A stretch of DNA of 64,000 bases from an uncultured virus (IMG/VR IMGVR_UViG_3300005201_000352) (IMGVR_UViG_3300005201_000352), one strand, 5' to 3'. Shown: positions 2,388-31,809, numbered from the stretch's first letter. Made by a program: numbers and translations. The notes: generated by a model from the letters alone, not told the origin.

Positions 2388-2768
2388 ATGATAAATAGAC
2401 ATTTATGCTTAATGGTTTTTTTTATCGGTTTTGTATTTACAGCTTGCGTTGAGCCTGATCAATGCGATTGTGAACTGCCGACAAATGATACAAGCACAAA
2501 CTATATGTTGCCATACATACCTGTTGAATCAGGACTATGTGGTTCAATATGGACGCGAGATGTTAACCCGCTCAATAACATTGTCTTTTCTGCTGACGGG
2601 TATAAAGTAACTGTTATGGGCGACCTTCGTAATATAATGAGTTACGGCCTAAGACCAGATGGCACTCATTTAATTATTATTCATTCGGCTAATATGTCGT
2701 CTACAATTCCTTGGATAATTGATGGCAATACATTGACAGCAGAATACACCACATACACCAGACAGTGA
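2388..2768 (+). CDS. Lipoprotein moron (possible superinfection exclusion)
   Basis: AGGAGG SD; hydrophobic signal ending FVFTAC; opposite strand to the phage late genes. Confidence 0.6.
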   Translation: MINRHLCLMVFFIGFVFTACVEPDQCDCELPTNDTSTNYMLPYIPVESGLCGSIWTRDVNPLNNIVFSADGYKVTVMGDLRNIMSYGLRPDGTHLIIIHSANMSSTIPWIIDGNTLTAEYTTYTRQ

Positions 2769-2853: not shown

Positions 2854-2927
2854 TGGTAGGAGCGGGATTTGAACCCGCGCTTTCCAGCTTATGAGGCCGG
2901 CTGAGCTGCCGTCTGCTCTATCCTACT
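2854..2927 (-). tRNA. tRNA with CAT anticodon (Met, initiator-like features)
   Basis: Cloverleaf: GTAGGA/TCCTAC acceptor, GAGC/GCTC D stem, CCGGC-CTCATAA-GCTGG anticodon arm, GGTTCAAATCC T arm. Confidence 0.88.
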
Positions 2928-2967: not shown

Positions 2968-3372
2968 TTAATTACTCACTCCCAGAATTATTAGCGTCGT
3001 CGCCGTACTGACTGCAAGAACCGCTGAAATAATCCTCCAAAATGTCACACTCCGCGATAATTTGCGCGTAACCGTCGCCTGATCGTCTATTAAGTCCCCG
3101 AACAGCGTCGATATCTGCCTGAGTTCTTGCAATTCGCGCTCTCTCTCGTTCAATTCGTTGATTCTCTGCTGCAATTCGATCTCTCTCTCGCTGTTCGTAT
3201 TCTCCAATTCGGTCAAGTAATTCTCTCTCTCGGCGTTGATACTCTCCAATTCCGCTACTATCTCCCGTATTCGCTCTACCGATGAAGTAGGCGGCGACGA
3301 CTGCTGCGGCCATAAAGATGATGATACCGATAAGAATAATAATGCCGTTACGAGTTTGTTTATCCATCTCAT
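2968..3372 (-). CDS. Signal peptide + coiled coil + C-terminal TM protein (spanin-like partner)
   Basis: 134 aa; hydrophobic N-terminus, E/R/L heptads, C-terminal IISAVLAVSTATTLIILGV; follows the endolysin. Confidence 0.6.
   Translation of the reverse strand: MRWINKLVTALLFLSVSSSLWPQQSSPPTSSVERIREIVAELESINAERENYLTELENTNSEREIELQQRINELNERERELQELRQISTLFGDLIDDQATVTRKLSRSVTFWRIISAVLAVSTATTLIILGVSN
2972..3367 (-). CDS. N-terminal TM + coiled coil protein (i-spanin/Rz-like)
   Basis: ATG at 3367, 9 nt after GGAGGG; TM GIIILIGIIIFMAAAVVAAYFIG, charged helix, two Cys near the C-terminus. Confidence 0.6.
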   Translation of the reverse strand: MDKQTRNGIIILIGIIIFMAAAVVAAYFIGRANTGDSSGIGEYQRRERELLDRIGEYEQRERDRIAAENQRIERERARIARTQADIDAVRGLNRRSGDGYAQIIAECDILEDYFSGSCSQYGDDANNSGSE

Positions 3373-3381
3373 TCAACCCTC

Positions 3382-3891
3382 CTATGCGCTTAATTTTTCG
3401 CTTGTTAAATACATTTTAAGCAGCTGCCATCTGTCTTCACCGCCGCTAACATACGGCGTATACCAGCGCGGGCAGTCTTTTTTCTGCGCTCCGTCGAAGT
3501 GGCGATTGACATCCAGTTTTTTTCCTAACGCGCTTTGTATGTACTTCACTAAATCGCGTAACGTGTTTATTGTTTCCGAACTGAATTCTCCGTTAAGGTT
3601 CATTGGGCATACCTCAATGCCTATCGCTTCGTAATTACGCATATCTCCCGAATGCCAGCCGATCTCTCCTATGGGCAAACATTGAAGCACCTGTGTATCT
3701 TTAACGATGAAGTGTGCCGACGCTTCCACGCCTAAACCGTCAGAACCGAATTCCCACCAATCACGCGGCGTAGTTATGCGCTGTATATACGGGCCGATCC
3801 AATGGATCAATATTTGCGTAACAGGCTTAGTAAATATTTTTCCGCATCTTGCTTTCTTGCCTAAACTCAAAAAATCTTCAGTTATGTTCAT
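3382..3891 (-). CDS. Endolysin, N-acetylmuramoyl-L-alanine amidase (Amidase_2)
   Basis: ILIHW, SAHFIV, WHSG, IGIEVC, RHFD...KDCP motifs. Confidence 0.9.
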   Translation of the reverse strand: MNITEDFLSLGKKARCGKIFTKPVTQILIHWIGPYIQRITTPRDWWEFGSDGLGVEASAHFIVKDTQVLQCLPIGEIGWHSGDMRNYEAIGIEVCPMNLNGEFSSETINTLRDLVKYIQSALGKKLDVNRHFDGAQKKDCPRWYTPYVSGGEDRWQLLKMYLTSEKLSA

Positions 3892-4111
3892 TTTTTCCCT
3901 CTCCGTTTTCGGCCTGATATAATTCTGCATTGAAAAATCTGCCTTTAACGCCGTTATTGGCTACCTGCAGGCCGATATACGCGCTTACAAGCGTTACGAT
4001 TGCCGTGAGCACGGGTGTTAATGCCGCGATCCCTGTTGGCTTTAAAAAGGCCGCAGCGCCAAAGAGCGCTATTAAAATTAAACCTACTATCAAAGCCGCT
4101 GACTTACTCAT
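3878..4111 (-). CDS. Holin-like two-TM protein
   Basis: 77 aa, two hydrophobic helices, charged tail, directly upstream of the endolysin. Confidence 0.65.
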   Translation of the reverse strand: MSKSAALIVGLILIALFGAAAFLKPTGIAALTPVLTAIVTLVSAYIGLQVANNGVKGRFFNAELYQAENGEGKNEHN

Positions 4112-4123
4112 ACTCTCCTCCTT

Positions 4124-4654
4124 CTAAAAACGAAATATTCTATCTTCAATGTCTTTTTTGACCTCATCGAAGTAGTTTTGATCGACTATTTTTAAATCAA
4201 TATTTGCTTCAAGCACATCTCTCCATGCTTCTTTATTATGTAAGATAAGGTTGAATCCATACTCCCTAATTCGTCCGTTCTTTCGCATGGCGATGAGCCT
4301 TAAAAAAGCCTTCATGCGTTTAAACATTGATTGTGAATCGTTAAAGAGCATATTCTCAAGAGTTCCTTGTGAGGCTTTAGTTATAATCGCTTCCTGGTCT
4401 GTAACAATTGAGAATAGTTTTTCAATGCTGGTTTCTATTTCACCCAATTTCTCGTCAAGCGCCGTCTGCCGCTCTTTTCTTTCCTCCGCGTCTCCGGCAA
4501 GAATTTCTTCAATTGGTTTCTTTTTCTTGTGGGTGATTAAAGGTAAGAGATGCTTAATAAGCAGCTCTATGATTTTGTATATAACCATTGCCCCAAGTAC
4601 GACAACGGCTAACGGCTCATCTTTTAATTGTGCAATAAACGCAAACTCAGGCAT
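4124..4654 (-). CDS. Membrane-anchored hypothetical protein of the lysis cassette
   Basis: N-terminal TM then helical domain; next to the holin. Confidence 0.5.
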   Translation of the reverse strand: MPEFAFIAQLKDEPLAVVVLGAMVIYKIIELLIKHLLPLITHKKKKPIEEILAGDAEERKERQTALDEKLGEIETSIEKLFSIVTDQEAIITKASQGTLENMLFNDSQSMFKRMKAFLRLIAMRKNGRIREYGFNLILHNKEAWRDVLEANIDLKIVDQNYFDEVKKDIEDRIFRF

Positions 4655-5771
4655 TTGCTCCTCCCTCTTTCTGACATTTATTCAGAGCCCGCGATCTTGC
4701 GTAAAACACGCCAAGTCTTTCACGGGGAGAAATATCAGTGCGCGTATGAGTCAGGCTTAAGGCATAGGGTTCCAGATAAACAAGCTGCCCGCGCCAATAG
4801 CCCAGCCGGATAAAGAGGCCTTCTTCGCCGCCTTCGGTGTTTTCCATTCCGCCAAAAACGTAGTTTCCCAGTGACCAGAAAACCGGCTTGCCCTTAACCC
4901 ACTCAAAGCCCTGAACGATGTGGGGATGTGAACCGATAACGAGATCCGCTCCCGCGTCGATAAGGTCTGTGTAAAGCTCCCGCGTTGCGGCATCAGGGCG
5001 TGTTGACCATTCAACTCTGCCGTGGAAAAGCACTATATTGACAGGAGCGTCGTTAGGTGACATTCCGGCTTTTAATTTTTCCCTGCCGCCCCTTCCCGCG
5101 TGCAGCATACCCGCCAAATTCGGTCCCGCGGCTGCGCTTACTCCGTCCCAGCCGTTTCGTTCACGCGGGAAAGACGCAATGCCGAAGACGCGGAAAGTTT
5201 CATCTCCCTTTGAAAAAACAAAGGCCTGAGAAGCAGCGTCGTCATCGACACCCGCGCCGGCAATTCCGATGCCTGCCTTTTCCAGCCACGAAAGGCTGTC
5301 AAGAAAAGCGTCTCTGCCGTAATCCCAAACGTGGTTGTTCGCGTGAAGCACCGCGTCAATTCCCGCGTTTTTCAGAGCCTCCGCTATTTCAGGAACAAAG
5401 CGGAAGTTAAATGATTTTTGCACTCTCTCTCCGCGGCTGCTGATTACTCCCTCAAGATTTATCAGCGTAAGATCAGAAGAAGCCAGCATTTCTGCCGTTC
5501 CGCCGAAAATTCCTATCGGCCCCTCCCTGAAAAGAATTTCCGAAGCGCCGCGGTCGAGCATGGTGTCTCCTCCGACGGCGATCCATGTGACCTCAGATGT
5601 ATCGCTTAGCGGGTAACCTTCGTCTCCTAACGCAAGCCCGTCAACACGTAAAGCGATGTAAGGCGGTGCGATTTCTTCTACCGGAACAAGTTTCTCTTTA
5701 CCGGAACGACACGCTGCGAGTGTTGTGTTAGTTCGACCGGCAAGATAATGCTCTTTGGGAACTATGAACAT
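4647..5771 (-). CDS. CapA/PgsA-family metallophosphoesterase-like protein
   Basis: GGDTML, INLEG, ANNHVWDYG, HGRVEW, IGSHPH, SLGNYVF motifs. Confidence 0.9.
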   Translation of the reverse strand: MFIVPKEHYLAGRTNTTLAACRSGKEKLVPVEEIAPPYIALRVDGLALGDEGYPLSDTSEVTWIAVGGDTMLDRGASEILFREGPIGIFGGTAEMLASSDLTLINLEGVISSRGERVQKSFNFRFVPEIAEALKNAGIDAVLHANNHVWDYGRDAFLDSLSWLEKAGIGIAGAGVDDDAASQAFVFSKGDETFRVFGIASFPRERNGWDGVSAAAGPNLAGMLHAGRGGREKLKAGMSPNDAPVNIVLFHGRVEWSTRPDAATRELYTDLIDAGADLVIGSHPHIVQGFEWVKGKPVFWSLGNYVFGGMENTEGGEEGLFIRLGYWRGQLVYLEPYALSLTHTRTDISPRERLGVFYARSRALNKCQKEGGANA

Positions 5772-6184
5772 TGTAATCTCTCCACTCCGCCGAGCCTGTC
5801 CGCCTGCTTCTCAGGGTAGCGGGAGAAGTACCAGCGCTGGCGTTTTTCCTGTGTCCAGTTTTTGTGAAACAATCTGTCCCATAAATTATTGAACACCACT
5901 GAGGGTAACCCTACAACTAACAGATACAGCGGCCCCCAATACAGCGACTGGAAGCTGTGACCGTTTTCGTGCCTTATAGTAGTTTCGTTTTTTGTTTTAA
6001 CTATTATGTAGTTTCCCAGCGAAATTCCGGAAATAAATTCACTAAACCGGTTTTTAGGTTTATAAAACCAGTAAATAATTCCCGTTTGCGGCTGCATGGT
6101 CTTCGTTGCTCCTAATAGTTGAATTAGGGCTAATGCCAGTAAATGCTGAGGCAACTGCCAGACGTATAACAAAAAGTTTTTCAT
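5762..6184 (-). CDS. Small membrane protein with HExGH zincin-like motif
   Basis: WQLPQ, GISLG, RHENGHSFQS..GPLYLLVVGLPS, EKQADRLG. Confidence 0.6.
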   Translation of the reverse strand: MKNFLLYVWQLPQHLLALALIQLLGATKTMQPQTGIIYWFYKPKNRFSEFISGISLGNYIIVKTKNETTIRHENGHSFQSLYWGPLYLLVVGLPSVVFNNLWDRLFHKNWTQEKRQRWYFSRYPEKQADRLGGVERLQCS

Positions 6185-7353
6185 TTTTCCTTCTCCAGCT
6201 TTCTTTTAATAGCTCTTTCCACGTGCTTAACTTCATCAAAGGCATACTCCCTGTTCGCGTACTGGATCGTCTTCTCGTGTCCTTTGCCGAGAAATAGAAT
6301 GATATCTTTATCTTGCGCCATTTTAATAGCTTGCTTTATAGCCGCGGCTCTGTTCGGAATGACAAAAAGATTTGTATCATATTTAAATCCTTTATTAGCA
6401 GACAAGACTGTCTCTTTCATCGTTTCAACGATGTCGATTTCATACCGCGGGTCTTCATCCGTAAGAATAATAACGTCGGCAAAATCGGCCGCCGCTTCGC
6501 TTATGCCGACGCGTTTTGAAAAATGCCTTGCGCCGCCCGATCCGTAAACGACGATTAACCTGCCTCCTCTTTCGACGGCTTGATCTTTATAACCGGGCAG
6601 CACAAGCTCAAAAGCCTGTTGGGTGTGCGCGTAATCGACTATTACTTTAAATTCCTGTCCGATGTTTATTTCCTGCATCCTCCCCGCGGGGAATTTTAAC
6701 TTTTTAACCAGGCCGTACATTTCTTTAAGCTCAATTCCTAACAGCTTTGATACGGTGGTTAATGCAGCCATAAGGTTTGAGATGTTAAAATCAAACTCGC
6801 CTATAAACCGAGCTTCGGAGGATAAAACTTTTGTTAATAGCGGGTCTATCTGTTTTATGTCATACTTATAAAGCGGTTTCTTTAATATAGATTCAAAGTA
6901 ATCCAAAAAATCATTTTCAGCGTTTATAACTGCGAACGGTTCATCCTCTTTACTCATGGGTATATACTCATTAAGCATTTTAAGCAGACGGCCTTTATCA
7001 TAAACGTACCCTTTTAGAGTACGATGTACTTCAAGATGCTCCTCTTTAATGTTGAGTACCACTGCGGCATACAGGTTGACCCAATACAGGGAGTCCTGCC
7101 AGTTCGCGAGCCTTTGCGACGTGAATTCATTTATGAAATACTCGCATCCGTTTTTTTCCGCCTGCGCTAATATATCAGCTAACCCTGAAGAATTGGGAGA
7201 ATAACGTCGTTTATTTATTCCCAAACTGCCGTCAGTTGAGACATCAACCGTTGTCAATATCCCGGTTCTTTTCCCCAGCATGTTTAGAAACTGCCAAATA
7301 AGAAAACATGTGGTAGTTTTTCCGTCTGTGCCTGTAACTCCGATTAACTTCAT
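6181..7353 (-). CDS. MurE-like Mur ligase lacking the N-terminal domain
   Basis: GVTGTDGKTTT P-loop at residue 5, EHLEVH, GRMQ, VDYAHT, TDEDPR, GKGHE. Confidence 0.88.
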   Translation of the reverse strand: MKLIGVTGTDGKTTTCFLIWQFLNMLGKRTGILTTVDVSTDGSLGINKRRYSPNSSGLADILAQAEKNGCEYFINEFTSQRLANWQDSLYWVNLYAAVVLNIKEEHLEVHRTLKGYVYDKGRLLKMLNEYIPMSKEDEPFAVINAENDFLDYFESILKKPLYKYDIKQIDPLLTKVLSSEARFIGEFDFNISNLMAALTTVSKLLGIELKEMYGLVKKLKFPAGRMQEINIGQEFKVIVDYAHTQQAFELVLPGYKDQAVERGGRLIVVYGSGGARHFSKRVGISEAAADFADVIILTDEDPRYEIDIVETMKETVLSANKGFKYDTNLFVIPNRAAAIKQAIKMAQDKDIILFLGKGHEKTIQYANREYAFDEVKHVERAIKRKLEKEK

Positions 7354-7367
7354 TTTTTTCTCCTTAA

Positions 7368-7757
7368 TTATTCAGCGACGCCGGTTATATTATCTGCATC
7401 TTGAAAATATATCTGTACGCTGGTAGGCGAATAAACAGCAGTTACATATCCGAATCCACCAAATTCACGTTCGTATCCAACCCCTATATTAGAGATTATC
7501 ATCACAAAATCACCGATAACGGGGTCACAGCTACCTATTGGGCGCATAATTGTAACTGTCTGATAAGTATTATTTCCCATAATAGGCTGAAAGCCATTAC
7601 CCTGAGTGTTATGAGTACAAATAAAAAACCTTCCAAAAGATTGATAATTGAACGCTCCGATTGCGCCCGTGTTACCAGTAGCTCCGATTGCGCCCGTGTT
7701 ACCAGTAGCTCCTGTCACTCCCCTGACATTTCCCAACAAAAATTCCTGTGTCGCCAT
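7368..7757 (-). CDS. Small collagen-repeat tail-fibre-associated protein
   Basis: EFLLGNVRGVTGATGNTGAIGATGNTGAIGA; 27-bp tandem DNA repeat; same motif as in the long fibre. Confidence 0.6.
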   Translation of the reverse strand: MATQEFLLGNVRGVTGATGNTGAIGATGNTGAIGAFNYQSFGRFFICTHNTQGNGFQPIMGNNTYQTVTIMRPIGSCDPVIGDFVMIISNIGVGYEREFGGFGYVTAVYSPTSVQIYFQDADNITGVAE

Positions 7758-7767
7758 AAGCCCCTCC

Positions 7768-9081
7768 CTATATGGTTATGTGCTTAATATGCCCCGCTCT
7801 AACGGCGGGATCGCACTTTATACTCTTGCCTAATCCCTTTACGGTCAGACAAAAATTTAAATCCTCAGATAAAACATCTCCATTTGCGTATTCGATATAC
7901 CTGAAATAGGGATATTCCAACTCTTTGAATAAATCAGTTTTGATTAGCGAAATAGCCAGCCCGCCGCCGTCACATTCAAAGATTTCTTTTGGCAGTGTTC
8001 CAACAGCGTAAAAAGAAAAATGCCCGAATTCTTGTTCTGGTTTTTTGTTAAAAATTGCGATATTAGTATCAGGGCTTCCCAAAGCCATCATCGTCCACGC
8101 GAGTCTTACGTCTCCGTCCATTGCCAGCAGTCTTGCCAGTGTCTGCGGCGGCAAAGTCTGGTCGCTGTCAACGAACATCAGATAATCAAAGCCACCGTTA
8201 ACCGCGTCCTTCGCCGCAATGTTCCTTCCCTGCGCCGCGGAATATTTAGCATACGTTCTGATTTCTATTGCACAGCCTTCAGGTTTTGCCATGCCGATTA
8301 GCGATTTCCAGCACTCGGTCTCGACAAATTGCGTGTACAGAATTGCCAGTAATATTTTTACTTTGCTGGTTGCCTGTTCGCGCCAGCTTCCCGCGCAGAC
8401 GTGAAGAGCGACGGTGTCAGTCGTTATCTGGTCGTGGAAGCCTGCGAAAACGTCATGCGGGTAGATTGCTATTCCTTCCCGCAATTCTTGGTAGTCATCC
8501 AGGTATCGGAAACCGTAATCGTATGCGACATCGGCGTAAATGAACGGAGCTATAAGTTTCCCCTGTAGGACGGCCTCACACATCGTGTCACTGCAATAGT
8601 CGTACCAGTCCATACAGCTCTGCAAAAACCGATGTCTCTCCTCAGCCCCGAAAATTGCTGCTTGCAAACCGATATGGCGGGTGAACGGACGGCGATTTTC
8701 ATCCCGTAATGAACCATCCGGCGCTAAGAGTTTTTCTGCGTTTTTGCTTCTAGCAGCCTCTTCAAAGTATTCGACAGCGGTAAAAAACCTGTGGTGCAAA
8801 AAGCTATCTATTGAAACGTACAAAACAACATCACTATCTAAATAGATACCGCCTTCACTGTATACAGCCCACAGTCTGATATAATCGCTTGCCGCCGCCC
8901 ATTTCTTACGCCTAACAGCTTCATCCACGAAAGCGCATTTTCCCTCCGGAAACTTCGCTCTATCCCAGAGGATGATCTCATAATCAGGGCATTGCTCTTT
9001 CCATGACTTCATAAATCCCCGTATCCGCTCAGGTACAGGTTCGTCAGACAGCCAGCACCAATGTATTTTTTTTGGTATCAT
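7768..9081 (-). CDS. Two-domain glycosyltransferase (GT32/DxD + GT2-like)
   Basis: MIPKKIHWCW, SDYIRL, GGIYLDSDV; second domain RN..A....FDYLMFVDSD, SEDLNFC, AGH. Confidence 0.85.
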   Translation of the reverse strand: MIPKKIHWCWLSDEPVPERIRGFMKSWKEQCPDYEIILWDRAKFPEGKCAFVDEAVRRKKWAAASDYIRLWAVYSEGGIYLDSDVVLYVSIDSFLHHRFFTAVEYFEEAARSKNAEKLLAPDGSLRDENRRPFTRHIGLQAAIFGAEERHRFLQSCMDWYDYCSDTMCEAVLQGKLIAPFIYADVAYDYGFRYLDDYQELREGIAIYPHDVFAGFHDQITTDTVALHVCAGSWREQATSKVKILLAILYTQFVETECWKSLIGMAKPEGCAIEIRTYAKYSAAQGRNIAAKDAVNGGFDYLMFVDSDQTLPPQTLARLLAMDGDVRLAWTMMALGSPDTNIAIFNKKPEQEFGHFSFYAVGTLPKEIFECDGGGLAISLIKTDLFKELEYPYFRYIEYANGDVLSEDLNFCLTVKGLGKSIKCDPAVRAGHIKHITI

Positions 9082-9097
9082 GTATTCCTCCTCATTG

Positions 9098-9643
9098 TTA
9101 ATAATTTATAGTTCCTGTGGTTGGTGTAATTGATATAGATGTGTTAAAATTTGCGACTTGCGTAGAAGAACTGCTATACTGGCTTATACTAACTGTTCCG
9201 TCATTATTAAATACGGCATCCCATGTGATATTTTGCCGTATAAAATAATCAGTCATTGTTCCTCCAGAAGCAATCAAACCACAATACGATACTGTTGAAA
9301 ATCTAATTGTAAACGAGGCGAGTCCTACCGAGTTCATAAATATTTTTAAATCATCAGGCATTGCCGAAAAAGTTATTGTTGAAAGAAGACGACCCGGAGC
9401 CGCTTGTGTACCCGAGCCGCTAATAGACCATGTGCCGTCATTATTAATAGTGAAAGTTCCTAGTGCATTACCATTTAAACTCACCGTCATGTTTACGTTA
9501 GGAACTTCACCTAACCAAACTAATTTAGCTACTCCGCCGACACTGGCATACATTTTAGTGACTTTGCGGGCGACTCCACCGACGCCGATATAAAGTTTTT
9601 TTGCCTTTCTTGCGACTCCACCGACGCCGATATATGCTGCCAT
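9098..9643 (-). CDS. Putative tail fibre/receptor-binding accessory protein
   Basis: Triple YIGVGGVARK-type N-terminal repeat; coupled to the fibre gene. Confidence 0.6.
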   Translation of the reverse strand: MAAYIGVGGVARKAKKLYIGVGGVARKVTKMYASVGGVAKLVWLGEVPNVNMTVSLNGNALGTFTINNDGTWSISGSGTQAAPGRLLSTITFSAMPDDLKIFMNSVGLASFTIRFSTVSYCGLIASGGTMTDYFIRQNITWDAVFNNDGTVSISQYSSSSTQVANFNTSISITPTTGTINY

Positions 9644-12426
9644 TATATATATACCACTCTTAAAGTACCGGTCGCCAAAGCCGAGTTAGCGCCCGGGTCA
9701 GATGTTCCTGAAACAATAGTTAAATTGTTTCCAGTCGCGCCCGTGTTACCGGTGTTGCCCTTCGCTCCGGCAGAGCCATTAGTACCTGCTGCACCGGTTA
9801 CGCCCCTTATATTTCCAGCCGCGCTGCAGGCCAACGGGGATAACGTTGTTATTTTAGCAAGCCCTCCTACGGCAACAGATATTCCCCCGATTGTTAAAGA
9901 CGCCGTACCGGTATTGAGGATTAAATCACCTACCCTAGCTCCAGTCGGCGCTGTCGAAGTTGCAGCTGTTACGGAAAATATAGGATTCGCGGCGCCCAAA
10001 GCCGGCAACCCGTTTCCTGTTGGATCATCGTCGAGGCTTACATAAAGATTGCCGGAAGTATCTACTCTTGCACTGACAACGCTCGTTCCTGTCTTGCCGG
10101 TTGCTCCAATAGTCCCCGCATGAGTATGATTTGTAAAAGAAACTTCTTTAGCCGTATCCCACGCGGTAGCATTAGCCGCTGCACGTTGAATAAACAGTTT
10201 GCCGTTAGCTTTACTAACACCAATGCGAGTACGACCTCCAACATCCGTACCTGCATATCCTGAAAAATCCCACCAATTTTTATATGTGGTATCCCCATTA
10301 ACATTCTCATTGGACATGTACACTTTACTATTTGTAGACATACCCAATCCGCTTGCGTTAGGAGCTTGCGCGCCTCCACTACCTGAATAACTACCAATTA
10401 GAATGTTATGGGTATGACTCGCGGCGGCTTTCCCATTATCTGAAAGCACTCCGCCCTTTAACTGGACGTTGCCGCCTATGACCTGACCGTTACCGAGCAG
10501 GAGTTTGTCGTTGTTACCGTCACCAGCCAATCTGACGCAGATAAACACGTCGCCCGGCCGCAGAAGCTGCGTAGTATTTGTTTGGCTATAAACCAGTGCG
10601 TATAAAGTAACGGCGTTTCGGTTACCACCTCTGGTATGCCTGCCGATAATAGCGGTAGATGGGGGTATGGTTATATTCCGCCCGCCCGTTATTGCTGGTG
10701 TAGTGCCAAGCCCTGTGATTGTAGGCCAGTCGGCATTTTCGCTCAGCCACATAACGTATCCATCCGAGCCTTGAGTTTTGTCTACCGGTTGTTGCATTAT
10801 TTGATTTATAATACCGCTTGTTCTTAACTGTGACAGAACACCCTCAGAGCTGAACGTCCAGTCGCCTCTCCATTGAAGGTTGCTAGAACCTAAGTTGGCT
10901 ATTCTTGATAAATCCGCGGAAGAGTTTAAGTATTTCCATTCTCCACCGTCAATTTCTGTAGCACTTTGTATATTTTTATAAGCAGCTAAACCACGACTTT
11001 GAACGTCTTCCGCGAAACAAAGTAATGCTGCTTCTTCAACCCCTGCGCCTATGCAAAAGATCATATACCGTTGCGAGCTGGTAAACTCTGACGGCAAGCC
11101 TGCCCTTGTTTTTTCGGCGGCATCGGCACTGTTATGATATACTCTAAACATTCGTAAATCATTTGAGGCTGCTTGAACTATTTGTGATAACGTTCCTGAG
11201 CCAACTGTTAGAGTATATTCAGGGCACATTAACTGTTGAAAAGACCTAACTAATCCTATATCGGCAAGAGCATTTCCGGGCAATGTTCTGATACCTTTAG
11301 AAGAACCGTCAGACACTAAAGGCTGTCCGGCAGTTGCGGGTATGTTGGCCATTCGTGAAAACAAATTCCCAAGGTTGCCAAGAATTGTTTTTATTATTCC
11401 TCTCAACGATCTCACGCCTGTAGTCGTTATCTGCGTATTACTTGCGGCGGGTACAGAGTCTATGTTCACCGCGACGGGCAGGGTAAAGTTCCCCCCTGTA
11501 TCGCTTGCGGTTGTTGAGGTCGAGTTATCGTCGACTGTGATAGTGCGGTTAAGCGCGCTTTGTTTACTGTTAGCTAAATCATACGCCTGTTTCACCGCGT
11601 TAGGTGTAGCAGCTTGCGTTACAGATGTCGAGTTAACAGCGTCATTTAACTGTACAACACCTTTAGCTGACGTTGTCGCGTCATTTCCCTTCACGTTCTG
11701 CGCTGTCCCGCTCTTGGCGTCAACGGATAGGCCGTTGCTTGCCGTAACGCTCTGTAACGCCGTATCGGCTTTTCCCAATGATTCCTGTACCGCGCTTTCA
11801 AGATCAGTTTTCGGTATCCCGCCTTCGGGTATCTCATAACCATTTATATGTCCGACAAAAAATTCCTGCTCTCCTACCGTGTAATAGAGGTTTCCTGTTT
11901 CCTCATTATACGTCAACGGGTTAGTTCCGCCGTCAATGGTTCGCACATAAAGATCGCCGTCTTCATTCACGTATAACCCGAAAAAGCCCGGAGTGGTAAG
12001 GTTAAGACCCGGAACGCCTGTGGCTCCGGTGTTACCCGTCGGGCCTTTTACGTTCCCTATTACAAACTCCTCTCCATTAATTGTATAAGACAGTTCTCCT
12101 GTAACGGCGTTATATGATAGCGGGTTGTTTCCGTCTACTGTTTGAACATATAGATCACCGTCAGAATCAACGTACAGTCCGAAGAAACCGGGAGTGGTAA
12201 GGTTAAGTCCCGGTACGCCTGTTTCTCCGGCTGGCCCTTTTAATTTTTCTAACCATAACGGATATAATTCGGCGACAGTCCGTGTTCCATCTCCGATAAT
12301 GTTTATTGTATTATCTGGGAAATCAGGAGCCCCTTTCAAAGCGATCATTTCCCCATTACGGAGAATAACATTTAATACCGTATTATACTCATACGGATGC
12401 CACCGCTGTCCTATTATTTCGGCCAT
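9643..12426 (-). CDS. Tail fibre protein
   Basis: Fibre repeat DATTSAKGVVQL...AATPNAVKQAYDLA, HTH-type metal motifs (SHTHN, NHTHA), Gly-X-Y tracts, internal ~66-aa duplication. Confidence 0.85.
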   Translation of the reverse strand: MAEIIGQRWHPYEYNTVLNVILRNGEMIALKGAPDFPDNTINIIGDGTRTVAELYPLWLEKLKGPAGETGVPGLNLTTPGFFGLYVDSDGDLYVQTVDGNNPLSYNAVTGELSYTINGEEFVIGNVKGPTGNTGATGVPGLNLTTPGFFGLYVNEDGDLYVRTIDGGTNPLTYNEETGNLYYTVGEQEFFVGHINGYEIPEGGIPKTDLESAVQESLGKADTALQSVTASNGLSVDAKSGTAQNVKGNDATTSAKGVVQLNDAVNSTSVTQAATPNAVKQAYDLANSKQSALNRTITVDDNSTSTTASDTGGNFTLPVAVNIDSVPAASNTQITTTGVRSLRGIIKTILGNLGNLFSRMANIPATAGQPLVSDGSSKGIRTLPGNALADIGLVRSFQQLMCPEYTLTVGSGTLSQIVQAASNDLRMFRVYHNSADAAEKTRAGLPSEFTSSQRYMIFCIGAGVEEAALLCFAEDVQSRGLAAYKNIQSATEIDGGEWKYLNSSADLSRIANLGSSNLQWRGDWTFSSEGVLSQLRTSGIINQIMQQPVDKTQGSDGYVMWLSENADWPTITGLGTTPAITGGRNITIPPSTAIIGRHTRGGNRNAVTLYALVYSQTNTTQLLRPGDVFICVRLAGDGNNDKLLLGNGQVIGGNVQLKGGVLSDNGKAAASHTHNILIGSYSGSGGAQAPNASGLGMSTNSKVYMSNENVNGDTTYKNWWDFSGYAGTDVGGRTRIGVSKANGKLFIQRAAANATAWDTAKEVSFTNHTHAGTIGATGKTGTSVVSARVDTSGNLYVSLDDDPTGNGLPALGAANPIFSVTAATSTAPTGARVGDLILNTGTASLTIGGISVAVGGLAKITTLSPLACSAAGNIRGVTGAAGTNGSAGAKGNTGNTGATGNNLTIVSGTSDPGANSALATGTLRVVYI

Positions 12427-14420: not shown

Positions 14421-15494
14421 TTACCCCACACGCCACAGACGCGCATAACCGCTTGATGTGTTTTTTGGCGGGTTTCCACGATTACCGTTATAGCCATCGT
14501 TACCACCCATGCCACCGTTACCACCAATTCCGCTCCCGCCGTTGTCGCCAGAGGTACCGCCACTGGCTCTAATAACCGTGTTACCACTGCCACCGTTACC
14601 GCCAATACCGCCAATACCGCCAATACCGCCTAAATTTACGATTCCGCCAATGCAGCTTTCTATTCCGCCACCGCCGCCGCCACCGCCGCCGCCACCGCCG
14701 CCGTTTGGATTGGGACTAGAAATATAACCACCGTTACCACCATTACCACCGTTACCACCATTACCACCGTCAGCACCAACACTGATTCGTACTTTTCCCC
14801 CAAGGTGAGAGAATACGCCAGTGATTCCCGTTGGAACGGAACCATCAGAGCCATTGTTTCCGGGAGCACCGTCAATACCACTGCTACCGTGATTACCACC
14901 GTTACCACCGTTACCACCAGCACCACCTCTACCTCCTCTCAGCCCATAACGGTACACCCCTGGCGCAAGATCGATTTCAGTATCTACTATCTGCTCACTC
15001 GGTGAACTATACGCGCTAACTCCAGTAGGAGGCGAACTGAAATCTTGCTTGGTATTCACCATAGACATCGCGTTGTAATTGTCGAGAATCACCTTGCCGT
15101 TGTACTGGCTGTCTGTATAAAAGAATTTCGCTATTGCTCTGTCATTGCCATTATACCAGCTGCCCTTCGCCGCGCTCCATACCGGAGCAGTATTGTCGAA
15201 CTTGAATCCAACATTGACTCCGTCTATTACTTCCGCGTATATGTAATTATTGCCGTTATGTGCCGGGGTAGTTAGCGTTCCTGATATTGTATCATTGCCA
15301 GGTCCTACTTCGTAAAACGCGCCGTTCATTTCAAACCGGCTCCCTGCTACAATTTCAGGTTCTCCAGTGTTGTCTATATTGGCCAGTTCAATGCAAATAA
15401 ACCCGCCGCCCTGTCTCGTTGTTCTTAAAATAAATTTATGCCAATCCTCAAGATTTGCTTGATTTACATTCGGTTCTAGAATTTTTACCGCCAT
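14421..15494 (-). CDS. Glycine-rich tail protein
   Basis: GGNGGN repeats and poly-Gly in the C-terminal half; tail module. Confidence 0.6.
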   Translation of the reverse strand: MAVKILEPNVNQANLEDWHKFILRTTRQGGGFICIELANIDNTGEPEIVAGSRFEMNGAFYEVGPGNDTISGTLTTPAHNGNNYIYAEVIDGVNVGFKFDNTAPVWSAAKGSWYNGNDRAIAKFFYTDSQYNGKVILDNYNAMSMVNTKQDFSSPPTGVSAYSSPSEQIVDTEIDLAPGVYRYGLRGGRGGAGGNGGNGGNHGSSGIDGAPGNNGSDGSVPTGITGVFSHLGGKVRISVGADGGNGGNGGNGGNGGYISSPNPNGGGGGGGGGGGGGIESCIGGIVNLGGIGGIGGIGGNGGSGNTVIRASGGTSGDNGGSGIGGNGGMGGNDGYNGNRGNPPKNTSSGYARLWRVG

Positions 15495-16190
15495 TTACCT
15501 TGCCTCTCTCCATGACAATGATCCACCATAAAAAAAACCGCTCTCATTCCGTTTCGGAAACGAAGTCTCTTTAATATCGAGCACCGCATACATCGGCGGA
15601 AACTCTTCCCGTGCCTGAGGGTACGGGTCTATGATATGCGGGGTAACATTCTGAACCGCTTTTATGTACTCTTTGATTAAACTTTGTTCTTCCAATGCCA
15701 GGCGATTGTAATTTACGGCGAAACTTTCAAGGGCAACGCGCTTCATGCCAAACACTTGGCCGCCGAATGACCGTGACGCTTCACTGTTAAGCGCAATACC
15801 CGTTTCCGGTTCCACGGCGAATCTCGGCAATTCGGTTTTATGTCCTAAATATAAATGCCCCAGATATAACGGGTCATCACTCTCTAGTTCAAGAATAAAA
15901 TAATCACTGTAAATGATTTCTTCAAAGTCACGTATCGTAATCAATCCCTTTGCTATATTTCCCTCGAAAATACCTTCCCTTGTTTCCAGCCGATAACAAT
16001 ATGCATTGGTGTATCCAAGACAAAGGGAATCTATTGTGACTATTTCATCGCCGCGTATTGTTACGTTCTCCTCTAAAAAATCAGCCCGTAATTTCAGCAT
16101 AGGATCGTAGACATTATATATCGACGAGCCAACCGCAAGCGGCGAATGATTTGTGAAAGCTGCTTTTTCGTTCCGGTAGTAAACATTCAC
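15495..16190 (-). CDS. Distal-tail-like protein
   Basis: Directly after tape measure; YLGHLYLG motif; synteny. Confidence 0.5.
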   Translation of the reverse strand: MNVYYRNEKAAFTNHSPLAVGSSIYNVYDPMLKLRADFLEENVTIRGDEIVTIDSLCLGYTNAYCYRLETREGIFEGNIAKGLITIRDFEEIIYSDYFILELESDDPLYLGHLYLGHKTELPRFAVEPETGIALNSEASRSFGGQVFGMKRVALESFAVNYNRLALEEQSLIKEYIKAVQNVTPHIIDPYPQAREEFPPMYAVLDIKETSFPKRNESGFFYGGSLSWREAR

Positions 16191-18559
16191 TTCAATGCCC
16201 TCGCTTTTATGGTATAGAAACCATCATTCACAAGATCGACCGTGCTTTTGGCGATCTCGCGAGTGTCCATCATGACAACGATGGTGGCCGTTACGGGACC
16301 GTTATTTGATGTAAGTTGCCCGGCAATACGATCTTGCTGGCTCCGGTTAAGGATAAGCTCACCTGAATTTACCATTGCCGGCACTTTGTCTCCAACGTAG
16401 CTGTTTCCGGGCACAATGCCACCGGTTGCGAACTGAGGAGGTTTCGGTGGATTTGCGGCGAGAAGGCCGATCTGTACTGCGGTAGCCGCTCCTGAAATCC
16501 CAGCGAGGATGATATTATAAGGCGGTGGCGCAGACGCAAGAGCCTGCAAGACCGCCATAATTCCGGCGTTTGCTGCACTAATCATTTTATTATTGAATTC
16601 CTGCACAGCCAAGTCATACTCAATTTTTGCCTTTTCCTTAGCTGCCTGTTCGGCAGCCTGTTTAGCCTGCTCATCATATTCATCATTTATGCGCTGCTCT
16701 TCAAGGCGTCGTTGCGCTTGATATATTAAAATTTCATCCCCAGTACGCTTGGCTGCCTCAAGCTGCGCTTCCAAACTTTCTTCATTATTTGCAACAGCAA
16801 ATCCGTTTGCAATGAGTGCTGCTTCACGGGCTTTTTCAATATTTTCAAGGGTTACTTCCAATGCTTTTTCAATTATAGCTATTTGTTCTTCAGCGTGTTT
16901 ACGGCTTATCTCTAACAAGCTATTTGATATATTATCATAAGCACCTATAACGGCTTCACCTAATTGTAATGTTTGTGAATAGATTTCTGAAAAGAAACCT
17001 TCTTTCAGATCCTTTTCTGCTTCTTCTCTAACCTTCTTCATGCCGGCAGTTATCCTATCAAAATTATCAAGTATGGCTTCTCGCTCCTCATCTGATGCGT
17101 TGATAAATGCTTCTGACTCTTCAATCGCTTTCCACGCGCGTTCGCGTTGAATATCTATTAATTCATTTTCCAGTTCAATTGCTTTGTTTATTGCAAAAAC
17201 ACGCTCTGCTTCCGATTTGGCAGACGCAGCCTTAGTTCTCCACATGTCAATTTCTTGTCGCCGTAGCTCATCGCCTTGATCTAGTAAAATCGCGTCTATA
17301 TTTTTCTGATATTCTTTCGCTTTTGCAATTTCTTGGTTTAGCCTAACCAGTTCCGCGGTTTCATCCCTGAGCCTAATTGTCTCGCCTGTAGTTAGTTTGT
17401 ATTGGGTAACAATTGATTCCAAGTCAGAATATTTTTGCTCAAGCGCCGCATGGATTTGTCTTTCCATTTCTTCTTCATTTATAAGCCCCGCTTCTCTTGC
17501 GTCGCGCGCTCTGCGTACAGCCTGTTCGTATTTTTCGATAGCCGTTAAACGGGCTTCGGTAATTTTTTCCTGATCGGTTATTTCACTTTCTTTCAGTCTT
17601 TCTTGTAATGCTATCCGCTCAGCTATTCTTTCATTAAATCTTTGATTATAAACACTACCTTGAATTTCTCCTTCCTGTCCCAGTGCTAACAATTCCGCTG
17701 TTTTATTTATATAATTATTAAGCGCGGAAACTGCAGCCTCGTCTCTTTCTTGCTGGGACATTGCTCCTTGGGCTTTTTGGTATTCTATCGCCTTGAGTGT
17801 TTGCATATATTCATTTTCAATTTCCTGTAATTTACTCAAACTTTCAACATTGGCATTCCCAGTTTGTTCCAGAAGATTATTAAGTTTTTCTTGTGCTCTT
17901 ATTAAATCTGCTTCCAATCCGGCAAGGTCTCTATCTCTAATTCTTATTGCCTCTCTTAATGTACGACCGTATGCTTTAGCAACATTTTCATTTATCTCAG
18001 CAATTCTTCTTTCAATCGCCTCAACGTCAGTTCTTGCATTATTGAGTTCGCTTGCAAGATTCTCGCCTATAACACCATAATTTTCATCGCGAATGCGTTT
18101 TAATGCCGCTCTTAATTCATTAGTCTGCCGAACACTTCTTGCAGCTTTTTCAATGAGATTAGCAAACCAATCAGTAACCGGCTTTGTTGCCGCAGTAAAG
18201 CTTGCCCCTAGTGATGACTTGAGATCAGAAATGCCTTTAGCGAATTTTTCATTTGCCATAAACGCATTACCAATTGCGCTTCCTAATCCTTGTATTGCTT
18301 TTATTCCTACTGTTATGCCAATTATTGCAGGAGATAGTTTTGTCGCAATACTTCTACCCATTTTCGCTGCGCTCGTTTCTACTTGATCAAAGCCCTGCTT
18401 CATACCGCCTGCAAAACCCTTCCCTGCTGTCTGTCCTTGCGCTTTCATCTTCGCAGCAAGTGCGTCCATTTTCTTTTGAGCTTCCAGAGCGTCTTTTTCC
18501 ATCTGCGTAAGTTTAAGACGTAATTCAGCTTCTATCGATCCGGCATCTTCCGCAGCCAT
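16187..18559 (-). CDS. Tail tape measure protein
   Basis: 790 aa helical; N-terminal DAGSIEAELRL, C-terminal FATGGIVPG...GDKVPAMVNSGELILN. Confidence 0.88.
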   Translation of the reverse strand: MAAEDAGSIEAELRLKLTQMEKDALEAQKKMDALAAKMKAQGQTAGKGFAGGMKQGFDQVETSAAKMGRSIATKLSPAIIGITVGIKAIQGLGSAIGNAFMANEKFAKGISDLKSSLGASFTAATKPVTDWFANLIEKAARSVRQTNELRAALKRIRDENYGVIGENLASELNNARTDVEAIERRIAEINENVAKAYGRTLREAIRIRDRDLAGLEADLIRAQEKLNNLLEQTGNANVESLSKLQEIENEYMQTLKAIEYQKAQGAMSQQERDEAAVSALNNYINKTAELLALGQEGEIQGSVYNQRFNERIAERIALQERLKESEITDQEKITEARLTAIEKYEQAVRRARDAREAGLINEEEMERQIHAALEQKYSDLESIVTQYKLTTGETIRLRDETAELVRLNQEIAKAKEYQKNIDAILLDQGDELRRQEIDMWRTKAASAKSEAERVFAINKAIELENELIDIQRERAWKAIEESEAFINASDEEREAILDNFDRITAGMKKVREEAEKDLKEGFFSEIYSQTLQLGEAVIGAYDNISNSLLEISRKHAEEQIAIIEKALEVTLENIEKAREAALIANGFAVANNEESLEAQLEAAKRTGDEILIYQAQRRLEEQRINDEYDEQAKQAAEQAAKEKAKIEYDLAVQEFNNKMISAANAGIMAVLQALASAPPPYNIILAGISGAATAVQIGLLAANPPKPPQFATGGIVPGNSYVGDKVPAMVNSGELILNRSQQDRIAGQLTSNNGPVTATIVVMMDTREIAKSTVDLVNDGFYTIKARALK

Positions 18560-23597: not shown

Positions 23598-24084
23598 TTA
23601 TCTCGTAACAGCGATGTCGAAGGTGTCAGCACCAACGGCCACTACAGTTCCAAGCAACGTGTTGCTCGATGATGTAGCGGATAACGCTCCAGCAGACGTG
23701 ATATACACATCACCTCCAATTGCCGCCGCAGGCAGATCGACTTTAGCAGCCTGAAAAACCGCGATCTGTTTCCCAACGTCCACGCTCCCGGAAGCACCGA
23801 TTGCGGTATCATAGTCGGAAAACCCTACAAGGCTCCCGAAAACGCAAATCTCGCCCTTCGTTTTGGCTGCGGGGAAGGCGGCTACTTTGATANNNNNNNN
23901 NNNNNNNNNNNNNNNNNNNNNNNNNNNNNNNNNNNNNNNNNNNNNNNNNNNNNNNNNNNNNNNNNNNNNNNNNNNNNNNNNNNNNNNNNNNNNNNNNNNN
24001 NNNNNNNNNNNNNNNNNNNNNNNNNNNNNNNNNNNNTACTTTGATATGGTCAGAGACCGGTTTTTTACCAAATAATTTAGCCAT
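23598..24084 (-). CDS. Capsid decoration/cement protein (DUF2190-like), about 110 aa once the spurious gap is closed
   Basis: TACTTTGATA on both sides of the gap; merging gives MAKLFGKKPVSDHIKVAAFPAAK...GGDVYIT...NTLLGTVV. Confidence 0.65.
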
Positions 24085-25796: not shown

Positions 25797-27056
25797 TTAA
25801 TATCTCCCGTGGAAAAATCCTCTTGCGTCATCGTCAAGAACTGTCATAACAGATTCAAGGTCTTCGGTAGCATACCGACACGCCGCGATAGCATCATCTT
25901 TGAACTTTACAGGTTCGTCTAACAGGTTGCCATCGCGATCTTCTCTCCACTTGTAAGAATTAACCTCTGAAACAAGTCCGGGGCAGGCAAGCGGATCAAT
26001 GTACCATGTCCCTCTGTTAAGCAATGAGATTTGTTCCTTTACGCTGTCCTTGCCCTTCTTCGCTCCTTCTATCCTGTACCCTTCCTGTTGCCATTGTTTA
26101 ATGCTCTTAGGCTCCGCGCTGTCCGCTATACATTTTTGTTTTTTACTTAGAATACCCTGATTTTCATTCTCAGCTATTATCTCATCGTTTGTCATGTGCC
26201 TGACATACAATTCACTGAATGAATATTTATCGCCGTCCTTTAACCCTATAAGTTCTATAGCGTTGTAATGGTTAAAGCCAAAATCTTGACCTGCTATTAT
26301 TTGATCAAAATCTTCCGGGCTATATGGACACGCTTGAATTTTTATGTTTCTAAAAACAAGGTTTCCCACGCTTCCCCATTTTCCCAAAGCGTAAATATCG
26401 TAATAAACCCTGTCTTGAAATTTCAACGCCTCTAATTTTTCTTTGTATTCACTGTCTAAAAATCTGTTGTCAATATATGTACTCTCATGGATTGTGGCTT
26501 TTTCTTTCTCTGTCTGGTTGTCAAAAAATCTTTTTTTTATCCAGTGGGTATCGCTTACGGGATTAAATAATAAGGTTATCTGAAATGGCACCTTTGCCTG
26601 TCCTCTTAACCTTAAATTCAACTGGTTAAATTCTTGCTCCGTGATCTCGGTCGCTTCTTCAATGAGTATGTCTGTCAATACTCCATTTTCAAACGTGATG
26701 GATTTTACTTTTTCAATATCATCTAACCCTAAATATTTGATCTGGTTGCCGTTGTGAATACAAGTCATAGTTCGGCTTGTTTTATTTTCACTTACGACTG
26801 GTTGTAGGTTCCACTGGTTTATAATTTTTCGTATTAACTGAATACAGCTAATACTAAGCGTTCTCTCTACCTTCCTGACAATAATATAATTATGCCCCGG
26901 CTCCGCTATGAATCGGTAAACGACCCGGCGATGTGCGTCTTCACTCTTGCCTGACCCTGCGCCTCCCTTGCAAATTATATAAGGTTTTCTGTCTTTCCAT
27001 AACGGTAAAAAATTATCATTGATCCACGCCGGGAGGGTTGAAAAATCAATCTCCAT
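25797..27056 (-). CDS. terL: Satellite terminase large subunit, PBSX family
   Basis: KGGAGSGKS, GLDDIEKVKS, IEEATE, FNP, STYIDN.FL, YALGKWG, GQDFGFN, ADSAEPKSI, DDAIAACRYA. Confidence 0.93.
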   Translation of the reverse strand: MEIDFSTLPAWINDNFLPLWKDRKPYIICKGGAGSGKSEDAHRRVVYRFIAEPGHNYIIVRKVERTLSISCIQLIRKIINQWNLQPVVSENKTSRTMTCIHNGNQIKYLGLDDIEKVKSITFENGVLTDILIEEATEITEQEFNQLNLRLRGQAKVPFQITLLFNPVSDTHWIKKRFFDNQTEKEKATIHESTYIDNRFLDSEYKEKLEALKFQDRVYYDIYALGKWGSVGNLVFRNIKIQACPYSPEDFDQIIAGQDFGFNHYNAIELIGLKDGDKYSFSELYVRHMTNDEIIAENENQGILSKKQKCIADSAEPKSIKQWQQEGYRIEGAKKGKDSVKEQISLLNRGTWYIDPLACPGLVSEVNSYKWREDRDGNLLDEPVKFKDDAIAACRYATEDLESVMTVLDDDARGFFHGRY

Positions 27057-31236: not shown

Positions 31237-31809
31237 TTATATGTGCTGGTTTCCTGCACAATCATNNNNNNNNNNNNNNNNNNNNNNNNNNNNNNNNNNN
31301 NNNNNNNNNNNNNNNNNNNNNNNNNNNNNNNNNNNNNNNNNNNNNNNNNNNNNNNNNNNNNNNNNNNNNNNNNNNNNNNNNNNNNNNNNNNNNNNNNNNN
31401 NNNNNNNNNNNNNNNNNNNNNNNNNNNNNNNNNNNNNNNNNNNNNNNNNNNNNNNNNNNNNNNNNNNNNNNNNNNNNNNNNNNNNNNNNNNNNNNNNNNN
31501 NNNNTGTGTTGGTTTCCTGCACAATACCGGGTCTTCGTATACCGTATATTTGGTTTCCCGCCTCTTGTTTCCCCCCTGCTCTTTTACCACATACCCCGCT
31601 TTTATTAGTTCGTTTAACGCCGCCTCCGTTGCATACCGACCGCTTGCGCTACGTGCGAATAAATCCCTTAAATGCAACTCCCATTGATCCGGTAATGACA
31701 GGCAATAAGCCAATAGACCTTTTGCCGCCCAAGACAATTCACAGTCTTGTATTGGCTCATTGTCCATTTGGAAAAATTCATCTTTGCGGTTCTTGCGCTT
31801 GATTATCAT
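31237..31809 (-). CDS. Satellite replication initiator (winged-helix), 3' end in an N gap
   Basis: LSWAAKGLLAYCLSLPDQW...GRYATEAALNELIKAGYV. Confidence 0.75.
   Translation of the reverse strand: MIIKRKNRKDEFFQMDNEPIQDCELSWAAKGLLAYCLSLPDQWELHLRDLFARSASGRYATEAALNELIKAGYVVKEQGGNKRRETKYTVYEDPVLCRKPTXXXXXXXXXXXXXXXXXXXXXXXXXXXXXXXXXXXXXXXXXXXXXXXXXXXXXXXXXXXXXXXXXXXXXXXXXXXXXXXXXDCAGNQHI

Follow-up and report, generated by a model that had tools for sequence, protein, structure and literature searches.

A putative dual-coded lysis pair closing a Treponema prophage cassette: a candidate lipoprotein-free equivalent of two-component spanins

Introduction

Known spanins need an anchor in the outer membrane. 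Among other lysis genes, lambda S has two starts (S105 and S107) that lie a few nucleotides (nt) apart behind one ribosome-binding region and give two products in a set ratio. Overprinted genes, in the view of Rancurel et al., are usually said to yield a short and often disordered novel protein within a longer gene. Here we describe a locus in DNA of an uncultured virus (IMG/VR IMGVR_UViG_3300005201_000352) in which two same-strand frames, A and B, remain open from end to end behind one Shine-Dalgarno (SD) site, directly after an endolysin gene. Throughout, "the window" is the whole 64,000-nt stretch that was analysed; coordinates are those of the window unless a related locus is named, and the dual-frame stretch and the lysis genes lie on its minus strand.

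In a 2018 survey of spanins (PMC6139136), about 70% of embedded outer-membrane spanins (o-spanins) start at 0.4-0.5 of the length of their inner-membrane partner (i-spanin), and a co-extensive partner is not among the spanin classes. The same survey gives the o-spanin lipobox consensus as [LVI][ASTVI][GAS]C, and describes the periplasmic domain of lambda Rz1 as short and largely unstructured and that of the T1 gp11 unimolecular spanin (u-spanin) as predicted to be beta-rich (PMC6139136). The locus described here resembles lambda Rz/Rz1 in that the pair stands last in the lysis cassette after the endolysin (PMC6139136), in that one partner is encoded in the +1 frame of the other, as with Rz1 inside Rz (PMC6139136), and in that protein B has the form of a type II protein of the inner membrane whose periplasmic domain is long and helical. 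It differs in that the second frame is co-extensive with the first. A also matches B in length and is helical, not short and Pro-rich; it lacks a conserved lipobox Cys, and a hydrophobic helix forms its C-terminal end. A and B also have one SD site between them, whereas Rz1 has an internal start of its own. A further difference is that the pair has no conserved periplasmic Cys.

A literature search on spanins with Treponema or spirochetes found nothing relevant to Treponema phages, and no word beginning "spirochaet" occurs in either the 2018 spanin survey (PMC6139136) or a 2025 survey of lytic proteins.

Results

Two co-extensive frames in one stretch of DNA

Frame A (2968..3372, minus strand) begins with the ATG at 3372, ends with a TAA at 2968-2970 and encodes 134 amino acids (aa). 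Frame B (2972..3367, minus strand) runs from the ATG at 3367 to a TAA at 2972-2974 and encodes 131 aa, or 134 aa if initiation occurs three codons further upstream at an in-frame TTG (3376). The two stop codons are 4 nt apart. Both starts follow a common SD sequence, AGGAGGG (3377..3383, minus strand), which includes GGAGGG at 3377-3382 and overlaps the TAG stop (3382-3384) of the amidase gene upstream. A preliminary description, made from the sequence alone, had reported two same-strand frames open for about 400 nt with these starts, stops and SD site, and all of its coordinates hold. The window has 67 open reading frames (ORFs) of 100 aa or more, and none but this one has a second same-strand frame that is 99% open; the runner-up reaches 60%.

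Related DNA taken from viral, metagenome and genome collections comprised 17 distinct loci (L007 duplicates L006, and the contigs of L002, L016 and L001 were hit a second time as L017, L020 and L021; these were not counted separately). Both frames are open over the whole gene, or to the contig end, in 16 of the 17, the frames of L002, L009, L010 and L015 having been followed as far as the contig end only. The related loci share merely about 36-57% protein identity with the window's A and B proteins, and L019, which represents a distant subgroup, still has both frames open. Homologues that keep only one frame open would have spoken for a single coding frame, as the preliminary description had pointed out; the one exception, L018 (1059-1432), has lost both. 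There the same two frame switches interrupt both frames, leaving A/B chimeric ORFs. The L018 record is titled "MAG: Treponema sp."; the pair follows an Amidase_2 gene, and the next gene, on the other strand, is host-like. L018 looks like a decayed copy of the lysis cassette and, on its sequence, may serve as a natural control for loss of selection.

The B family profile found 66 proteins at E<=1e-3, and the A family profile found 43 representatives of 50%-identity clusters at the same threshold. Gene callers annotate one frame or the other at each locus, never both; the window's own assembly annotates frame B as the gene (P0001). Of two profile searches of genome contigs, one found nothing and the next found L018 only, while a search of viral contigs with a profile of the distant B subgroup, and tblastn searches of GenBank phages with A and with B, returned no match. 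In the ESM Atlas, the nearest cluster to A is mostly Spirochaetota (score 0.94), and no cluster scores above 0.82 for B; we treat both as leads only. The proposal of a spirochaete host thus gains from the title of the L018 record and, as a lead, from the Atlas cluster.

In four of the loci (L003:4412-4609, L005:1264-1623, L006:3379-3834 and L009:485-811), the gene just 3' of the pair encodes a related, secreted-looking protein with a hydrophobic N-terminus lacking a lipobox and a conserved HPPG/HPPW motif, and with a YHLRC C-terminal end in L005 and L006. This protein, which is not present in the window, could be a third envelope component.

Openness of the frames against chance

The third same-strand frame contains 13 stops in the window and 12-23 per locus across 13 loci, 216 in total, spread over the full length. 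T content is 21-29%, and the central region is GA-rich. Because the third frame is full of stops, GA-rich composition alone does not keep frames open, which answers the caveat in the preliminary description that such sequence can leave a stop-free shadow frame.

For a permutation analysis, one protein was kept and its synonymous codons were shuffled within the gene, with 2,000 trials per locus, for 12 loci and L019 (L009 contains N and was left out). With B kept, the A frame stayed open with a probability of 0-0.12 per locus in the 12 loci; with A kept, the corresponding probability for the B frame was 0-0.041. In L019, the other frame was open with a probability of 0.06 when B was kept and 0.001 when A was kept. 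When codons were drawn instead from the general codon usage of the window, 5.8-12.5 stops were expected and at most 0.05% of trials stayed open.

One antisense frame of the pair is stop-free in L011 (1990-2376) and in L013 (1483-1890), and has 1-2 stops in L008, L014 and the window. The open antisense frame differs among loci and other loci have more stops, so this is probably an effect of composition.

Start codons and the common ribosome site

In the window, the spacer from the SD is 5 nt to the ATG of A and 10 nt to that of B. Wherever a locus includes the 5' end (17 of 17), both starts have an SD-like motif at a distance of 4-12 nt, in keeping with the claim that one SD serves both frames. 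The arrangement of the starts varies. Seven loci have ATGAATG or ATGGATG, in which A starts 4 nt after B; six have ATGTG, in which the ATG of A is followed 2 nt later by a GTG for B; three, including the window, have ATGNNATG, with A first and B 5 nt later; and one further locus has a 7-nt offset between the two starts. Frame A is the +1 frame of B in every one of these layouts. Unless both starts are used, their joint persistence through these changes of layout is difficult to account for.

Selection on both frames

Among the 12 complete loci, pairwise protein identity averages 0.515 for A and 0.432 for B. We compared the identity of each frame with that expected if only the other were selected, permuting the synonymous codons of the selected frame. 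The B frame shows an identity of 0.434, against 0.233+-0.005 expected if A alone were selected, and the A frame shows 0.498, against 0.263+-0.006 in the converse permutation; both frames lie about 40 standard deviations above the identity that the other alone would impose. As this test assumes saturated synonymous sites, it was checked against the neighbouring endolysins of the same locus pairs. Their third-position identity is 0.28-0.42, compared with 0.50-0.66 for A and 0.59-0.80 for B, and the same codon is used at identical residues in 62-72% of cases in A, 67-82% in B and 33-67% in the endolysins, figures to be read with the reservation, which counts against dual coding, that the endolysins are more diverged (17-31% identity) than the pair and so make an imperfect control for saturation.

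Pairwise differences at codon positions 1/2/3 are 0.365/0.297/0.457 for A and 0.451/0.369/0.338 for B. This profile is ordinary for A and inverted for B, which indicates that A is the more constrained, yet the third positions of A are far from free. Synonymous codon usage gives too weak a signal in this genome to show which of the two frames arose first, with scores of 0.043+-0.026 for long ORFs, -0.039 to 0.046 for A and -0.028 to 0.098 for B. In sum, both frames are open in diverged relatives and are selected there beyond what either would impose on the other. On these comparisons, we regard it as very nearly certain that the stretch is dual-coding.

Anatomy of protein A

Of the 56 members of the A family set, 6 were dropped for atypical length and 50 were examined. 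Protein A is 131-141 aa long in the 12 complete loci. A signal-peptide-like N-terminus and about 10 polar residues lead into a long helix in which hydrophobic residues recur at heptad spacing, and the protein closes with a C-terminal hydrophobic anchor; LFG-x-LIDDQA is a conserved motif. The AlphaFold2 (AF2) model has helices at residues 2-20 and 31-133 (mean predicted local distance difference test score, pLDDT, 87).

The N-terminal hydrophobic segment (residues 1-22; 3307..3372, minus strand) has a best 10-12-mer Kyte-Doolittle score of 2.1-2.7, and the score is at least 2 in 49 of the 50 family members. Its codons also encode the start of the transmembrane (TM) segment of B. It is rich in Leu, Phe, Ser, Tyr, Cys and Trp, residues whose codons begin with T, because the NTN codons of the TM segment of B, read in the +1 frame, become T-starting codons in A. 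The end of the segment usually resembles a signal-peptidase I site by inspection (LFA-Q, SFS-Q, LWA-Q). At the other end of the protein, the hydrophobic anchor (residues 114-132; 2977..3033, minus strand) has a 19-mer score of 2.28 in the window, and a C-terminal hydrophobic 17-mer scoring at least 1.5 is found in 46 of the 50. Basic residues average 3.3 in the 12 residues before this anchor versus 1.0 in the tail of about 3 residues after it, an unusual distribution that is atypical of a stop-transfer anchor.

The A of the window has no Cys at all. Within the family, 16 of the 50 have no Cys in the first 32 residues, a Cys, where there is one, seldom fits the lipobox, and by inspection only L016 (LVSC) matches the consensus. 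Neither feature of an o-spanin, a lipoprotein signal with a lipobox Cys or a short, largely unstructured periplasmic domain, was found in A, which is modelled instead as one long helix. Of the u-spanin features, the C-terminal hydrophobic helix is present and the lipobox is absent or not conserved. The suggestion that A is not a lipoprotein is borne out to the extent that the family does not conserve a lipobox Cys. Family matches of A are non-specific coiled-coil matches. A fold search of BFVD gave no match for B and five for A, all at E>5, and is uninformative for single long helices.

Anatomy of protein B

Protein B consists of an N-terminal TM segment, a conserved FIGRAN-like stretch, an Arg/Glu-rich helix carrying RERELL-x-RIGEYEQRE, a dip at DRRSG, a short and likewise conserved helix (IL-x-DYF) and a polar tail. 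The TM segment (3290..3346, minus strand) has a best 19-mer Kyte-Doolittle score of 2.98 in the window and of 2.4-3.2 in 12 of 12 loci, and the C-terminus is never hydrophobic (-0.74 to 0.51; 12 loci). In the AF2 model (mean pLDDT 79), helices span residues 3-32 and 37-127, with a pLDDT dip near residues 95-100. The hydropathy scans and AF2 models of the two proteins agree with the topologies first proposed from the window, namely an N-terminal TM segment and coiled coil in one product and, in the other, a signal-peptide-like start, a C-terminal hydrophobic segment and no Cys.

B has three features of an i-spanin: the N-terminal TM domain of a type II inner-membrane protein (Kyte-Doolittle, 12 of 12 loci; orientation assumed), a mostly alpha-helical or coiled-coil periplasmic domain (the AF2 helix 37-127), and a place in the lysis cassette beside the endolysin. 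No Pfam family passes its cut-off for the window's B. Across the B family, there are weak matches to phrog_312, "Rz-like spanin", in 6 of 19 members at E<=0.01 (best 1.6e-5) and in 4 of a further 60 at E<=1e-3, and the best families among these weak matches are all named "Rz-like spanin".

The codons of the anchor of A (2977..3033) also encode the polar tail of B, which is rich in Asn, Asp, Ser and Gly, residues whose codons accommodate that anchor. To judge from the sequence, each end of the gene appears to have a leading frame around which the other fits. In the alignments of both frames, the central helix gains residues in blocks of 7 or 14, and such heptad-sized insertions are expected if helical register matters.

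Linkage to endolysins

The gene directly upstream of the pair in the window (3382..3930, minus strand) encodes an endolysin, an N-acetylmuramoyl-L-alanine amidase, with matches to Pfam Amidase_2 (E 1.9e-13; 51.3 bits against a cut-off of 26) and to PHROG endolysin families (best E 1.2e-15). Fifteen loci have at least 500 nt of upstream sequence, and in 8 of these a peptidoglycan hydrolase above the Pfam cut-off lies directly upstream: Amidase_2 in the window, L013 and L018, CHAP in L001, Peptidase_M15_4 in L002, and Peptidase_C39_2 in L005, L010 and L019. L004 has a sub-threshold CHAP match. The linkage survives exchange of the endolysin module among four families, which is typical of lysis-cassette partners.

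Upstream of the amidase lies a holin-like small membrane protein of 77 aa (3878..4111, minus strand) with two hydrophobic segments and a charged C-terminus. It has no Pfam family above cut-off and no PHROG match; close relatives occupy the same pre-endolysin position in L001 and L002. Before it, a 176-aa ORF (4124..4654, minus strand) encodes an N-terminal hydrophobic segment and a charged helical region, and had no significant match in the family searches (Pfam, PHROG). No promoter-like site was seen between the endolysin and the A/B pair.

The wider window

The A/B pair is the last gene before a tRNA-Met (CAT) gene (2854..2927, minus strand), 41 nt downstream, and closes the late/lysis gene run. 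Other landmarks of the window are genes for a tail fibre (9643-12426), tape measure (16187-18559), large terminase (25797-27056) and integrase (35196-36242), and for a second terminase (41338-42825), which belongs to a second set of head and packaging genes beyond the integrase. The wider window is prophage DNA whose tail-to-lysis run ends with the pair, and the presence of two different large-terminase genes with an integrase between them suggests two adjacent phage-derived regions. No attachment-site (att) repeats matching the tRNA-Met were found within window 1-40000.

Several other features of the window were noted. Between the tail genes and the lysis cassette (4647-9081) are four large ORFs (374, 140, 390 and 437 aa) that are atypical for phage; just the last matches PHROG, in a family of unknown function, and the four may be envelope-modifying accessory genes. 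Past the tRNA, on the opposite strand and outside the cassette, a 126-aa ORF (2388-2768, plus strand) has a lipoprotein-like signal (FTAC). Gly-rich repeats with a 9-nt period occupy 14475-14954 within the ORF at 14421-15494, and collagen-like repeats occur in the small ORF at 7368-7757 (7656-7721) and in the tail fibre gene. Runs of N (masked or unresolved sequence) break four ORFs, at 539-729, 23893-24036, 31266-31504 and 63136-63290.

Discussion

Selection acts on both frames of this locus, the two starts and the two topologies are conserved, and there is a link between the pair and endolysins. A role of the pair in lysis is probable. That it performs the outer-membrane, or spanin, step is our best single guess, with the chances slightly in its favour, judged from position and anatomy. 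On balance we favour the view that A and B are a dual-coded lysis pair ending a Treponema prophage cassette, a lipoprotein-free equivalent of a two-component spanin.

Under this proposal, the cassette would be read in the order holin-like gene, amidase endolysin and dual-coding stretch (2968-3376, minus strand). Ribosomes would load at the single SD overlapping the endolysin stop codon and initiate at either of two starts, 5 nt apart and in different frames; going by this anatomy, one mRNA would yield two unrelated proteins in a fixed ratio. B would sit in the inner membrane as a type II, i-spanin-like protein whose periplasmic helix, Arg/Glu-rich and about 90 residues long, is hinged at the conserved DRRSG. 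A would be exported by a signal peptide without a conserved lipobox, and would form a heptad coiled coil of about 85 residues ending in the C-terminal hydrophobic helix. Acting jointly after holin and endolysin, the two would remove the spirochaete outer membrane as the last step of lysis.

A number of observations weigh against this proposal. That both frames are translated is inferred from sequence, and the binding of A to B and their disruption of the outer membrane are proposals. The signal-peptide and TM calls for both proteins come from Kyte-Doolittle scans and inspection, with no trained predictor. No outer-membrane anchor is evident for A or B, either by hydropathy or from Cys residues, which 16 of 50 A proteins lack in the first 32 positions; "spanin" therefore denotes a function here and not membership of a family. 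A cleavable signal with a hydrophobic helix at the C-terminus would, under the standard rules, make A a type I inner-membrane protein; with B of type II by hydropathy, both may share the inner membrane, unlike known spanins, which bridge the envelope. The soluble domains of A and B show no charge complementarity, both being mildly acidic. The B protein of the window itself gives no spanin-family match at E<=0.01, and 56 of the 60 further B family members give none at E<=1e-3; the matches that were found fall in the TM segment and the low-complexity Arg/Glu helix and may reflect composition only. Finally, no endolysin family was recognised directly upstream in 7 of the 15 loci. The end-to-end spanin pair first proposed for this locus is partly borne out: the co-extensive frames and the spanin-like position after endolysins speak for it, and by hydropathy both products look anchored in the inner membrane.

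A bolder version of the proposal, which we hold to be doubtful, is that the pair represents a new class of spanins that lack a lipid anchor, in which each residue of the two strands of a parallel, heteromeric, helical periplasmic rod has its counterpart in the other, both being specified by one DNA. B would be held in the inner membrane by its N-terminal TM segment, A would be freed by signal peptidase and lie in register along B, and the Ser/Thr-rich hydrophobic helix at the C-terminus of A would push into the outer membrane. The end-to-end overlap and the out-of-frame dual start would then lock the length, heptad register and stoichiometry of the partners. The surplus of basic residues ahead of the anchor of A, and the heptad-sized indels of both frames, are compatible with this version.

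If instead only one frame coded, the other would be a stop-free shadow left by purine-rich composition or common ancestry. The GA-rich central region would fit, as would the codon-phase pattern, ordinary in frame A only, and the gene callers, which report one frame per locus. We find this very hard to credit, given a third frame with 12-23 stops in every locus, permutation probabilities that exceed 0.12 in none of 13 loci, whichever frame is kept, a start codon within SD reach in both frames of 17 of 17 loci, hydrophobic anchors at fixed places in both frames, conservation of each frame about 40 standard deviations above that imposed, and third positions of A that are unsaturated (0.50-0.66 versus 0.28-0.42 in neighbouring genes). 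Least probable of all is programmed ribosomal frameshifting that joins the frames into chimeras, for example the TM segment of B with the C-terminal anchor of A. Any shift would give a full-length chimera because both frames are open throughout, and the indels of L018 create exactly such ORFs; but each frame has its own conserved start and its own stop, so that frameshifting is not needed, and L018, with host genes as neighbours, has the look of a decayed copy.

The other alternatives accept both proteins and differ over what they do. The pair might regulate or assist an earlier step of lysis, such as holin timing in the manner of an antiholin or the release or activation of the endolysin. This would suit two proteins that both look anchored in the inner membrane, with no outer-membrane anchor; the two starts at one ribosome site recall the dual start of the lambda S holin and antiholin, and a further TM and coiled-coil gene (4124-4654) lies in the same cassette. 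We nevertheless consider it unlikely. Periplasmic helices of about 90 residues are not a known feature of antiholins; the only family matches of B, weak as they are, go to Rz-like spanins; and the last place in the cassette, after the endolysin, is the usual position of spanins (PMC6139136). More improbable still is a function outside lysis, as envelope proteins for lysogenic conversion or superinfection exclusion. In the window, the pair does close the late/lysis run and has a tRNA gene as its next neighbour; L004, L006 and L008 have integrase genes no more than about 2 kb from the pair; and accessory genes often occupy such sites. Against this, the pair is on the endolysin strand with its SD overlapping the endolysin stop, the endolysin link persists across four endolysin families, and no promoter-like site separates the two.

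A dual-coded lysis pair of the kind we favour can be set beside other described systems. In outline, A recalls T1 gp11 in its signal-peptide-like N-terminus and C-terminal hydrophobic helix. The signal of gp11, however, is that of an outer-membrane lipoprotein with a lipobox, whereas A has no lipobox in the window and 16 of 50 relatives have none; A is modelled as one long helix where gp11 is predicted to be beta-rich, and A is always accompanied by the overlapping B. As in lambda S105/S107, closely spaced starts behind one ribosome-binding region would give two products of one lysis gene; the holin starts are in frame and their products differ by two residues, whereas here the starts are out of frame and the sequences unrelated. 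Like phiX174 E within D, the locus is one DNA with two frames both kept by selection. It differs from usual overprints in encoding two structured membrane proteins of equal length, with start-to-stop overlap, conserved topogenic segments and heptad-sized indels. We see the pair as a probable variant on the theme of overlapping two-component spanins rather than as a member of any spanin family.

Provided that the function proposed for it is correct, the arrangement probably gives phages a new means of breaking the spirochaete outer membrane. The locus offers a concrete, genetically testable candidate for how spirochaete phages pass that membrane. Spanin search rules, which look for a lipobox together with a type II partner, do not cover the pair. 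Among natural instances of full-length dual coding it is unusually clean, with one DNA and one ribosome site, and the arrangement holds down to about 35-40% protein identity. As such, it bears on the origin of overprinted genes, on proteins missed by gene callers, and on how the ratio of two partners may be set by the choice of start codon.

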